From Escherichia phage vB_EcoM-G3G7, in sequence record MZ234040.1: a DNA stretch of 64,000 nt; one strand, given 5' to 3'. Shown one piece after another: positions 47,527-51,228 of the stretch. Every line of letters begins with the position of its first letter. Within the stretch, counting starts at the first letter, position 1. Both the position numbers and the translations under genes were made by a program. The notes beneath the pieces were generated by a model. The model did not search any database. It worked only from the letters and a program-made list of their open reading frames with translations, and was not told where the DNA came from.

Positions 47527-49038
47527 TTATAAATTAACTGTTTTCATTACGTAATTAAATTTTTCATCTGCGTAGCGCTGAATACGATCAATGCCGTGTT
47601 TTAAAAGATAGTTCAAGTGAACATATTTCTTTTTAGTATTAGCAGATTTTGGCTTGACACCACAGTCATCTATGAGGTCCCAGACTGTTGCGATTGTTTT
47701 AGAACCATGCTTACGTAATACACGACCGATTGTTTGTAATACAATGATTTTTGATTTAACACCGTGTGCTAAAACAACGTGATGCAGATTTTTAACTGAA
47801 ATACCAGTAGAAAATACACCATAACTAGCTACTATAATTATTCCTTTACCGTTTTCAGCTAAGGTTTTCATTATATTGCGGGTTTCGGTATCAACTTCCC
47901 CTGATACGTAATAAACTTTATCGTATTCATTTTTAATTAAATCGAAAATAGCTTTACCGTGCGATACGTGTTTAAACATGACAAAAGCGTTTTCATCTTT
48001 TTGTGCAAGCTTAATAGCTAATTTAGCGATCCATTTATTTCTTTTACTAAGCCCAGTAATAATTTTTATTTCTTCTTGATAAGTTTTTCCCTTTAATTTA
48101 GTAGTGAACTCATCGGGATAGCGAAGAAAAATACTATTAATTTTTAACTCAGTTACTTGTCCATCTTCCATTAATTTAGAGGTCGTTACTGGCTTAAATA
48201 TTTCACCGAACATTCCAACATACTGCATGATATTGGCTTTGCCATCACGTAATGAACCAGACAAACCGAATTTGAACATGCAGTTATTTAAACCTGATAT
48301 GATAGATGAAATACTTTTTCCTGTAGCAAGATGACATTCATCATTCATCATCATTCCAAACTGTGAGAACCATTCTTTCGGTTGTTTTACTACAGTTTGC
48401 CATGTACCAACGACGACTGGTGCATCATTTTTATATTTATCATCTTTTGATGCTCCGCCACCAATTTTCTTTATCATTGCATGGCTGAATAAACGATAGT
48501 CGACGAAGTCATCAGCCATCTGAGTTGTTAGAGCAGTTGTTGGAACAATGATAAGAATTTTACCTTCATAATTTTCCAAATAATATCGCGCAAGCAAAGC
48601 TTGAATTAACGATTTACCAGCGGATGTTGGAAGATTAAGAATTCTACGACGATTAACTAATCCTTCGAACACTGCATCTTTTTGATACCAGTGTGGTTCA
48701 ATTCTTTTATTTCCTGAATAGATTTCTAATTTAGAAAGCCATTCATCAAAATCTTTTCTTGATAATTCTTCTTTTTCGTTAATTTGTGGGTCAATCCAGG
48801 CTTTATAGCCAAAGTTATCACAGAACTTTTTAATTTGCCCGACTAAGCCGAATGGAAGAAGACGATTATAATCTAACAGACGGATTCGTCCATCCCAGTG
48901 GCCATATCTGTACTTCGGATTAAAACGATACCCATCAGCTTCAAAGCTAAAGAAATCACGGAGTTCATGAAATGTACTTTCTTCACAATCAATTCTCACG
49001 TGACTAAAATCATAAAAATGTACTTTAATGTCAGTCAT
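47527..49038 (-). CDS. uvsW: UvsW RNA-DNA / DNA helicase (SF2)
   Basis: 503-aa ORF with helicase motifs (LPTSAGKS Walker A, DECH box); T4 UvsW size. Confidence 0.92.
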   Translation of the reverse strand: MTDIKVHFYDFSHVRIDCEESTFHELRDFFSFEADGYRFNPKYRYGHWDGRIRLLDYNRLLPFGLVGQIKKFCDNFGYKAWIDPQINEKEELSRKDFDEWLSKLEIYSGNKRIEPHWYQKDAVFEGLVNRRRILNLPTSAGKSLIQALLARYYLENYEGKILIIVPTTALTTQMADDFVDYRLFSHAMIKKIGGGASKDDKYKNDAPVVVGTWQTVVKQPKEWFSQFGMMMNDECHLATGKSISSIISGLNNCMFKFGLSGSLRDGKANIMQYVGMFGEIFKPVTTSKLMEDGQVTELKINSIFLRYPDEFTTKLKGKTYQEEIKIITGLSKRNKWIAKLAIKLAQKDENAFVMFKHVSHGKAIFDLIKNEYDKVYYVSGEVDTETRNIMKTLAENGKGIIIVASYGVFSTGISVKNLHHVVLAHGVKSKIIVLQTIGRVLRKHGSKTIATVWDLIDDCGVKPKSANTKKKYVHLNYLLKHGIDRIQRYADEKFNYVMKTVNL

Positions 49039-49067
49039 GTCTAAATACCATGTAATAAATATATCTA

Positions 49068-49075
49068 TATTTATA
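49068..49075 (-). promoter_or_regulatory. T4-type late promoter (TATAAATA) for uvsW
   Basis: TATAAATA on minus strand about 30 nt upstream of the uvsW ATG. Confidence 0.6.
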
Positions 49076-49088
49076 CTGAGGAAATATT

Positions 49089-49769
49089 ATGATAGATAAA
49101 GATTATATTGCAGAGCTGAAGGCTCTTGATGATAACAAAGAAGCTAAAGCTAAATTAGCTGAATATGCTGAACAGTTTGGTATAAAGGTCAAAAAGAATA
49201 AATCTTTTGATAATATCGTTGTTGATATTGAAGAAGCCCTCCAGAAGCTCGCTAGTGAACCTATGCCGGAGACTGATGGGTTATCTATTAAAGACTTAAT
49301 TGATGCTGCTGATGCTGCAGAGGGGTTAAAATATGACGATGAAGAAGTCAATCCAGAAGCAGCACTTTTGATTGATTCTCCGGTTAAATCTGACATTAAA
49401 ATTGAAGTAGTAGAAACAGATAAAATTCCTGAAAATACCACTGTTTTAATTGAAGATACTCCTTTTGTTGAAGAAAAATTCGAACAGGCTGTAGCTGAGA
49501 TTATTGAATCTGAAAAGCCGTCTGTATTTACTCTTCCGGAAAACTTTAGCCCGAATCTTCAGTTGATTGGAAAAAATCCAGGATTCTGTACTGTTCCTTG
49601 GTGGATTTATCAATGGATTGCTGAAACTCCTGATTGGAAATCTCACCCAACTAGTTTTGAACATGCGTCAGCACACCAAACTTTATTTAGCTTAATTTAT
49701 TACATTAACCGTGACGGATCAGTTTTAATTCGTGAAACACGCAACTCTTCTTTCGTAACATTAAAATAA
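49089..49769 (+). CDS. inh: Inh, inhibitor of prohead protease gp21
   Basis: 226-aa ORF at the conserved position upstream of hoc; T4 Inh size. Confidence 0.8.
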   Translation: MIDKDYIAELKALDDNKEAKAKLAEYAEQFGIKVKKNKSFDNIVVDIEEALQKLASEPMPETDGLSIKDLIDAADAAEGLKYDDEEVNPEAALLIDSPVKSDIKIEVVETDKIPENTTVLIEDTPFVEEKFEQAVAEIIESEKPSVFTLPENFSPNLQLIGKNPGFCTVPWWIYQWIAETPDWKSHPTSFEHASAHQTLFSLIYYINRDGSVLIRETRNSSFVTLK

Positions 49770-49778
49770 GGATAACTT

Positions 49779-51197
49779 ATGACTTTTACAGTTGATATAA
49801 CTCCTAAAACACCGACAGGGGTTATTGATGAAACTAAGCAGTTTACTGCTACACCCAGTGGTGAAACTGGAGGCGGAACTATTACATATGCTTGGACTGT
49901 AGATGATGCTCCACAAGATGGAGCTGAAGCAACTTTTGATTATGTATTAAAAGGACCTGCTGGACAAAAGACTATTAAAGTAGTTGCAACAAATACAGTT
50001 CCAGATACTGATGCTGAAACAGCAGAAGCTACTACAACTATCACAGTTCAAAATAAGACACAAACAACTACTTTAGCTGTAACTCCTGGTAGCCCTGATG
50101 CTGGAGTGATTGGAACTCCAATTGAATTTACCGCTGCCTTAGCTTCACAGCCATCAGGTGCAAACGCTACGTATCAATGGCACGTTGACGGTTCTCCTGT
50201 AGACGAAGCAACTGACGCTACATTCAATTACACTCCTGACACAAGCGGAGTTAAAAAAATCAAGTGTGTAGCTCAAGTAACTGCGGCAGATTATGATGCA
50301 CTAAGCGTTACTTCTAATGAAGTATCATTGACTGTTAATAAAAAGGAGCAGACAACTACTTTGGCAGTAACTCCTGATAGTCCTCCAGCGGGAGTAATCG
50401 GAACCCCAGTTCAATTTACTGCTGCCTTAGCTTCTCAACCTGATGGAGCGTCTGCTACGTATCAGTGGTATGTAGATGATTCACAAGTTGGTGGAGAAAC
50501 TAACTCTACATTTAGCTATACTCCAACTACAAGTGGAGTAAAAAGAATTAAATGCGTAGCCCAAGTAACTGCTGAAAATTACAATGAAAAGGAAGTTACT
50601 TCTAATGAAGTATCATTGACAGTTAATAAGAAGACAATGAATCCACAGGTTACATTGACTCCTCCTTCTATTAATGTTCAGCAAGATGCTTCGGCTACAT
50701 TTACGGCTAATGTTACGGGTGCTCCAGAAGAAGCACAAATTACTTACTCATGGAAGAAAGATTCTTCTCCTGTAGAAGGGTCAACTAACATATATACTGT
50801 CGATACCTCATCTGTTGGAAGTCAAACTATTGAAGTTACTGCTGTCGTTACTGCAACTGATTACGATAGCAAAACTATTACAGCAGAAGGTCAAGTTCAG
50901 GTAACTGATAAAGTTGCTCCAGAACCAGAAGGTGAACTACCTTATGTTCATCCTCTTCCACATCGTACTTCAGCTTATATCTGGTGCGGTTGGTGGGTTA
51001 TGGATGAAATCCAAAAAATGACCGAAGAAGGTAAAGATTGGAAAACTGAAGATCCAGACAGTAAATACTACCTGCATCGTTACACTCTTCAGAAGATGAT
51101 GAAAGACTATCCAGAAGTTGATGTTCAAGAATCACGCAATGGATACATCATTCATAAAACTGCTTTAGAAACTGGTATCATCTATACCTATCCATAA
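49779..51197 (+). CDS. hoc: Hoc, highly immunogenic outer capsid protein, with four Ig-like domains
   Basis: 472-aa ORF MTFTVDITPKTPTGVIDETKQFTATPSGETGGGTITYAW...; C-terminal capsid-binding region ...ELPYVHPLPHRTSAYIWCGWWVMDEI...; internal diverged tandem repeat of one Ig-like unit. Confidence 0.9.
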   Translation: MTFTVDITPKTPTGVIDETKQFTATPSGETGGGTITYAWTVDDAPQDGAEATFDYVLKGPAGQKTIKVVATNTVPDTDAETAEATTTITVQNKTQTTTLAVTPGSPDAGVIGTPIEFTAALASQPSGANATYQWHVDGSPVDEATDATFNYTPDTSGVKKIKCVAQVTAADYDALSVTSNEVSLTVNKKEQTTTLAVTPDSPPAGVIGTPVQFTAALASQPDGASATYQWYVDDSQVGGETNSTFSYTPTTSGVKRIKCVAQVTAENYNEKEVTSNEVSLTVNKKTMNPQVTLTPPSINVQQDASATFTANVTGAPEEAQITYSWKKDSSPVEGSTNIYTVDTSSVGSQTIEVTAVVTATDYDSKTITAEGQVQVTDKVAPEPEGELPYVHPLPHRTSAYIWCGWWVMDEIQKMTEEGKDWKTEDPDSKYYLHRYTLQKMMKDYPEVDVQESRNGYIIHKTALETGIIYTYP

Positions 51198-51201
51198 TCA
51201 T

Positions 51202-51228
51202 AAGGGGCTTCGGCCCCTTTCTTCATTT
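51202..51228 (+). terminator. hairpin terminator after hoc
   Basis: AAGGGGC-TTCG-GCCCCTT followed by a T-rich stretch. Confidence 0.6.

Follow-up and report, generated by a model that had tools for sequence, protein, structure and literature searches.

The window analysed here, 64,000 nucleotides of Escherichia phage vB_EcoM-G3G7 (MZ234040.1), contains on its plus strand an open reading frame at positions 49779–51197, which encodes the head-decoration protein Hoc (472 aa). Using phmmer, the product was matched to T4 Hoc (PDB 5vf3_Z, 376 aa) with E = 1.6e-224. Directly upstream on the same strand lies inh (49089–49769), encoding a 226-aa inhibitor of the prohead protease. This gene served as a syntenic marker: RB27 has an equal 681-nt gene, annotated inh, at the same position, and the inh of locus L024 (UGKSEcP1) corresponds to Pfam Phage_Inh_N/C. 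The neighbour of inh is uvsW on the minus strand (47527–49038), and the gene order uvsW, inh, hoc, 24.3, 24.2, rnlB is that of the annotated RB27 and UGKSEcP1 loci. Since the neighbours of hoc are uvsW and inh, then 24.3, 24.2 and rnlB, the locus is a T4-type hoc locus. An AAGGA stands 7 nt ahead of the hoc ATG, and a terminator-like GC hairpin with a T run behind it begins 5 nt past the stop codon (51202–51219, plus strand; consensus scan only). On each feature checked by sequence, the gene is a full member of its family, the Hoc of Tevenvirinae. Its DNA is 100% identical in nine GenBank phage records (vB_EcoM-CHD2BS1, MZ234027 among them), which form one isolate series with consecutive accessions MZ2340xx, and 90–99% identical to hundreds more. 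The window is therefore assigned to a Tequatrovirus.

Some observations concern the surroundings of the gene. In T4 and Shfl2 a homing endonuclease gene, segE, separates uvsW from inh (L022:144–761 and L027:144–761). It is not found in the window (49039–49088), RB27, UGKSEcP1 or T2, where the gap between uvsW and inh is only 50 nt. The T4 late-promoter motif TATAAATA occupies minus-strand positions 49068–49075, a short way upstream of uvsW; its 18 occurrences in the window, versus 8.6 expected by chance, befit a T4-like genome. Antisense reading frames within inh (49103–49441 and 49446–49664) were judged spurious, and a terminator-like hairpin at 50102–50120, inside hoc, was attributed to chance (3 sites seen versus 1.6 expected).

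As a trait of the family, one Hoc monomer occupies the middle of every gp23 hexamer once the capsid has expanded, and the protein is dispensable for growth. T4 Hoc aligned to the window protein in two pieces, with residues 1–117 on query positions 1–117 and residues 95–376 on query positions 191–472, which makes the additional 96 aa a repeat of T4 domain 2 (D2). The first-pass annotation had described a Hoc lengthened by an extra Ig-like domain, and this was borne out: the window protein has 472 aa with four Ig-like domains and a capsid-binding domain, T4 Hoc 376 aa with three Ig-like domains in addition to a capsid-binding domain. All parts lie on the plus strand. Ig-like domain 1 (D1, aa 1–92; 49779–50054) aligns to T4 Hoc residues 1–92 and is followed by D2 copy 1 (aa 93–188; 50055–50342) and D2 copy 2 (aa 189–284; 50343–50630). 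Ig-like domain 3 (D3, aa 285–376; 50631–50906) aligns to T4 Hoc 189–280, with Pfam Ig_3/I-set at 289–373, and the capsid-binding domain at the C terminus (D4, aa 377–472; 50907–51194) aligns to T4 Hoc 281–376. T4 Hoc (PDB 5VF3, 8T1X) is the same gene in the same locus, and its D1, D3 and capsid-binding domain are 88–95% DNA-identical to those of the window.

Domain prediction agreed with this layout. The Pfam PKD profile scored 40.6 bits on Hoc against a cut-off of 23.5, and Ig_2 and PKD_4 were likewise above their cut-offs. An HMM built from D2 units gave 189 bits on aa 93–188 and 196 bits on aa 189–284, versus 33–35 bits on domains 1 and 3. An AlphaFold2 model computed from a 30-sequence alignment (mean pLDDT 83) shows four beta-sandwich domains over residues 1–378. 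Within this Ig part the pLDDT of 10-residue blocks is 80–95 (82–92 for D1), and the capsid-binding domain is poorly modelled (33–66). The best PDB fold matches of the model are strings of four Ig domains, namely Dscam1 Ig1-4, ICAM-5 D1-D4 and Sidekick Ig1-4 (E about 1e-13). At the C terminus, all 15 residues that we checked are identical to T4; they comprise the residues in contact with gp23 as well as Asp313 and the ESRNG loop, as named for T4 Hoc (PMC10385173).

The two D2 units form a tandem repeat. Tandem Repeats Finder reported positions 50064–50633 with a period of 288, 2.0 copies and 76% matches (score 665), and a repeat finder paired 50043–50330 with 50331–50618, gap-free and at 74%. 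Compared between the boundaries given in the first-pass annotation (50055–50342 and 50343–50630), the copies are identical at 214 of 288 nt (74%) and 72 of 96 aa (75%). The strong similarity noticed in the first reading thus stood, and its figure of about 80% was slightly high. Of the motifs given there, QTTTLAVTP..GVIGTP..FTAALASQP was found in both units and SNEVSLTVNK at the end of each. The differences between the copies are distributed over codon positions 1, 2 and 3 as 14, 17 and 43. Codon-shuffled controls reached 88 ± 7.5 matches (maximum 117; z = 16.8) and random 288-nt pairs drawn from the window at most 110, and since both stay far below the 214 observed, chance is excluded. The copies are 74% identical in DNA to each other, versus 53–59% to D1 and D3. 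They are adjacent, in frame and of equal length, and each is one whole domain, with unit boundaries that are domain boundaries in the AlphaFold2 model. That makes them a tandem intragenic duplication, as proposed.

We then estimated age and selection (Nei-Gojobori). Between copy 1 and copy 2, dS is 1.12 and dN 0.17 (ratio 0.15), with about 70 synonymous sites and dS near saturation. Between the window and T4, dS is 0.22 for D1, 0.22 for D3 and 0.23 for D4. The value for copy 2 versus T4 D2 (dS 0.27, 90% nt identity) resembles those of the flanking domains, which identifies copy 2, a 'B-type' cassette, as the orthologue of T4 domain 2. Copy 1, an 'A-type' cassette, differs more from T4 D2 (dS 0.81, 80% nt identity) and, judged by these distances, is a deep paralogue with no T4 orthologue. 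The divergence of the two copies is several times as old as that between the hoc genes of the window and T4. The ratio between the copies indicates that both are under purifying selection; for the capsid-binding domain versus T4, dN is 0.009 and dN/dS 0.04. T4's single D2 copy may be a secondary loss; in such a recombining population the data are compatible with either polarity (gain in this lineage or loss in that of T4).

In IMG/VR, hoc relatives were found at only 21 loci, most of them in other genera; with so few Tequatrovirus genes among them, the population analysis was based on the phage GenBank collection and on protein clusters instead. For the whole-gene survey, 678 phage records that matched were ranked, and we sampled 60 rows at even intervals. 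In this sample, hoc measured 1419–1425 nt in 18–19 records, 1125–1131 nt (T4-type) in 31 and 852 nt in 2; the T2 record had a span of 1117 nt and no annotated gene. One 288-nt unit used as blastn query matched 616 phage records at 890 places, and among 60 spread rows two places were found in 19 records and three in one (YUEEL01). The best 120 protein clusters comprised lengths of 375–379 aa (81), 468–472 aa (30) and 567–570 aa (9). According to the HMM, the 376-aa class has one D2 unit, the 472-aa class two and the 568–570-aa class three. Roughly a third to two fifths of the deposited Tequatrovirus genomes appear to carry two (or more) D2 units; these fractions are rough because the collection is redundant (GenBank/RefSeq duplicates, sibling-isolate sets).

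RB27 (annotated hoc), PP01, PST, phiD1, HP3 and wV7 have the two-unit Hoc (90–97% identity) and, together with about 200 other deposited Tequatrovirus genomes, share the order D1-D2-D2-D3-D4 at 90–100% DNA identity. The annotation of the 472-aa protein in these genomes reads Hoc, 'large head outer capsid protein' or 'PKD domain protein', and between the window allele and the Hoc of the RB27 group we found no difference of substance. The domain that the first-pass annotation called extra is therefore extra relative to T4 with its single unit, but it is ancient and common in Tequatrovirus and not particular to this phage. UGKSEcP1 (L024:1501–3207) and YUEEL01 (L029:932–2638) encode a Hoc of 568–570 aa with three D2 units and five Ig-like domains. 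UGKSEcP1/2 and YUEEL01 thus have the same cassette system with three D2 units instead of two, and the first unit of UGKSEcP1 equals window copy 1 in protein, with at most 1 nt difference in DNA. The record OZ035759.1 (H152), named 'Mosigvirus mar005p1', contains a Tequatrovirus-type two-unit hoc (92.6% identity to window copy 2), and its name may be a taxonomic mislabel.

Unit types differ chiefly in two patches, unit residues 44–56 and 77–85. Among 122 proteins, the one-unit architectures were A (51), B (28, including T4) and C (3), the two-unit architectures A-B (24, including the window), A-C (3), A-A (2) and B-C (1), and the three-unit architectures A-B-C (4), A-A-C (2) and A-B-A (2); divergent second units occurred in 2 of the 122. 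Among the units that come first in the window, RB27, UGKSEcP1 and L001, together with the single unit of L004, nucleotide identity is 87–100%, versus only 73–78% to the B group. When single-unit genes with A only were compared with those with B only, the deep divergence was confined to hoc codons about 101–170. D1, D3 and D4 were mostly 87–100% identical per 30-nt window, bar two short dimorphic patches. One of these lies in D1 (about 49989–50018, hoc codons 71–80; LSEGGPET versus VPDTDAET) and one at the end of D3 (about 50847–50906, T4 codons 261–280), and in both, nt identity falls to 50–65% in comparisons of alleles that elsewhere agree at about 95%.

The two variable patches of the D2 unit were found in nearly all combinations. 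T4 D2 (L022:1501–2631) is itself composite: it is nt-identical to window copy 2 over unit codons 41–72 (in every 24-nt window) and to window copy 1 over unit codons 81–88, that is, a B-type unit with a short A-type patch, and the window has one D2 more. This mosaic points to a past exchange between the two cassette types. In the variable patches dN/dS between types is 0.49, elevated yet short of 1, and the figure of 1.3 within type A comes from very few sites; these values are no evidence of positive selection. Enrichment of the copy differences in loops was borderline (p = 0.056 and 0.051). In contrast to the 74% identity of the units as a whole, their ends are nearly the same. The 39-nt conserved end of copy 1 (50307–50345, plus strand; GTTACTTCTAATGAAGTATCATTGACTGTTAATAAAAAG) is a candidate crossover site, with the 39-nt conserved end of copy 2 (50595–50633, plus strand) as its partner; the two differ at only 2 of 39 nt, and the dN/dS of the unit ends is 0.02.

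Because the copies are old, the length classes genus-wide and the types mosaic, we regard D2 as a cassette of variable copy number, resized probably by unequal recombination at the conserved ends. We are confident, though short of certain, that an old D2 duplication was kept by selection and is now a copy-number polymorphism throughout the genus, resized by recombination. The hoc allele of the window runs from D1 through D2(A), D2(B) and D3 to the capsid-binding domain and holds two in-frame 96-aa D2 copies, versus one in T4, which would have originated in an ancient tandem duplication. Today the locus contains one, two or three D2 units of types A, B and C, mostly in a fixed order, and single-unit genes hold any one of the types. 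We infer homologous, out-of-register recombination in mixed or high-multiplicity infections, in which the near-identical unit ends would act as crossover sites and whole 288-nt cassettes would be gained or lost in frame. In-register exchange and gene conversion would shuffle the two variable patches, which are predicted to lie largely in loops. The data fit such an old array that may have been trimmed, extended and shuffled at conserved unit ends. At the T-even tail-fibre adhesin locus, Tetart, Desplats and Krisch reportedly described in 1998 that recombination between conserved motifs swaps variable segments. The mode proposed for hoc would be the same, although the tail-fibre protein is a different one with a role in host-receptor binding and no Ig domains.

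A different origin of the tandem deserves some weight, although we doubt it: A and B might have diverged as alleles of a single-copy D2, with one unequal or illegitimate crossover during co-infection making the tandem, and this array might, just as tentatively, have spread afterwards via recombination through conserved flanks. Single-unit genes with either an A-type or a B-type unit do exist, hoc is mosaic elsewhere too, and the D1/D2 and copy-1/copy-2 junctions share only a short AATAA(A/G)AAG-like microhomology, as in a one-off illegitimate event. However, the divergence between A and B stops inside the unit and D1 and D3 are near-identical, so that reciprocal loss of paralogues is simpler than alleles diverging over the long term without linkage, and the A-B-C order is largely kept in the arrays, which fits an ancestral array that was repeatedly trimmed. 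Diverged alleles and an old array nevertheless predict almost identical present-day data.

Two further readings were dropped on the grounds of dS and population frequency. It is highly improbable that an artefact of assembly or sequencing lies behind the repeat, or that hoc is a decaying pseudogene without a functional fibre. Nothing specific speaks for either, apart from hoc being dispensable in the laboratory and the T2 gene being broken in two independent records. Mis-assembly of a repeat could not yield copies of 74% identity, the frame is intact, dN/dS amounts to 0.15 for the two copies and to 0.04 for the capsid-binding domain, and the same architecture recurs in hundreds of independent genomes. 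A duplication that is recent and confined to this phage or its near relatives, as the first-pass annotation implies by its contrast with T4 alone, would be favoured by the origin of the nine identical hoc records in one isolate series. It has a next to negligible chance, given a dS of about 1.1 between the copies, the same architecture in RB27, PP01, PST, phiD1, HP3, wV7 and many more, and two units in about a third or more of the genus.

Several frameshifts interrupt the hoc gene of T2 in two independent records (L026:1501–2740, MH751506; L028:630–1613, AP018813), of which one has no gene annotated and the other three fragments. T2 therefore probably makes no full-length Hoc.

Changes by whole domains are also found elsewhere in the family. 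The 283-aa Hoc of the PhiPNJ-9/BYEP01 type (PMC11853027) is a whole-domain length variant whose D2 has the same S183-L184-T185. It has lost D3 (D1-D2-D4, junction LTVN/DKVAPEPE), whereas the window has D2 twice. In the BYEP01 record, where this Hoc lies at L023:1501–2352, a further anomaly was noted at L023:2932–3852: the annotated rnlB measures only 381 nt and directly adjoins a major capsid protein gene in inverted orientation, which may be a rearrangement or a misassembly. In the sister genus Dhakavirus, Hoc falls into like length classes (IME341, 472 aa; L006, 471 aa; JS98, 282 aa). The extra domain of IME341 (L005:1501–2919) and L006 arose independently, through tandem duplication of domain 3; the units are 58% and 77% identical in protein, and JS98 Hoc has two Ig domains only. 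Given the D3 loss in the 283-aa protein and the D3 duplication in Dhakavirus, whole-domain gain and loss is normal Hoc evolution.

Much more distant are the Hoc-like fibre of Serratia phage Muldoon with 10 Ig-like domains (PMC10385173) and the T5 decoration protein pb10 (PMC5292684), which combine a capsid-binding domain with a variable number of Ig domains; the literature consulted treats them as variable architecture and not as copy-number polymorphism within a genus. Hoc homologues in general carry strings of Ig-like domains, from 10 in Muldoon down to one or two (PMC10385173). The IMG/VR genome UViG 2706796453 (L014) contains a Hoc-like reading frame which, extended upstream to a putative start codon, appears to encode about 1039 aa with many weak Ig-like units, similar to Muldoon.

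What would the additional unit mean for the virion? The T4 Hoc fibre is 180 Å (18 nm) long and present in 155 copies per capsid (PMC10385173). In the window phage, each Hoc copy should carry one further Ig domain, and attachment to the capsid should be unchanged, as the conserved C terminus suggests. By estimate from the published 180 Å, the fibre should exceed that of T4 by one Ig domain, or roughly 4–5 nm. Both proteins are acidic strings of Ig-like domains, with a pI of 4.43 and a net charge of −29 in the window versus 4.74 and −14 in T4. A pH-dependent clustering of Hoc has been proposed (PMC10385173), and the greater acidity could bear on it.

Hoc's Ig-like domains bind mucin glycans in T4 and in PhiPNJ-6/9 (PMC9271167, PMC11853027), and the 283-aa Hoc binds MUC2 via the D2 residues S183, L184 and T185 (PMC11853027). 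This S-L-T motif of D2 is present twice in the window protein, at 183–185 and 279–281. In the model the residues sit in the last beta-strand, so the published effect of the S183/L184/T185 mutant may reflect folding and not a direct contact. In the literature we found no experiment on a four-Ig Hoc (length, assembly, adhesion or glycan binding). That a longer fibre could alter adherence to mucus or surfaces, as the first-pass annotation proposed, is plausible.

It is conceivable, though we would not count on it, that populations resize and reshuffle the D2 cassette array to tune the reach, glycan specificity or antigenicity of the fibre, with the types under balancing or diversifying selection in the gut. 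Polymorphism, deep divergence of the types and mosaicism are what was observed in the sequences, and an adaptive value may be proposed for them. Such tuning would be a capsid-surface analogue of the variation in repeat number of bacterial surface adhesins and an analogue of the known adhesin swapping in T-even tail fibres.

As a discovery, the finding is minor. The sequence and its architecture have been deposited many times, a variable number of Ig domains in Hoc homologues has been published (PMC10385173, PMC11853027), and the population-level picture of the cassettes is a modest addition. We found no open-access account of the D2 duplication or of the A-B-C polymorphism in Tequatrovirus, and an earlier description elsewhere is possible.

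Hoc has been proposed as the means by which T4-like phages adhere to mucus, and it is in wide use as a scaffold for display on vaccines and vectors. The three-Ig Hoc of T4 is only one among several lengths that are common in nature, which also provides a four- or five-Ig scaffold whose capsid anchor is unchanged. Display engineering and the comparison of therapeutic phages can profit from these length variants, and they offer a natural experiment in which fibre length or D2 type can be set against mucosal retention.
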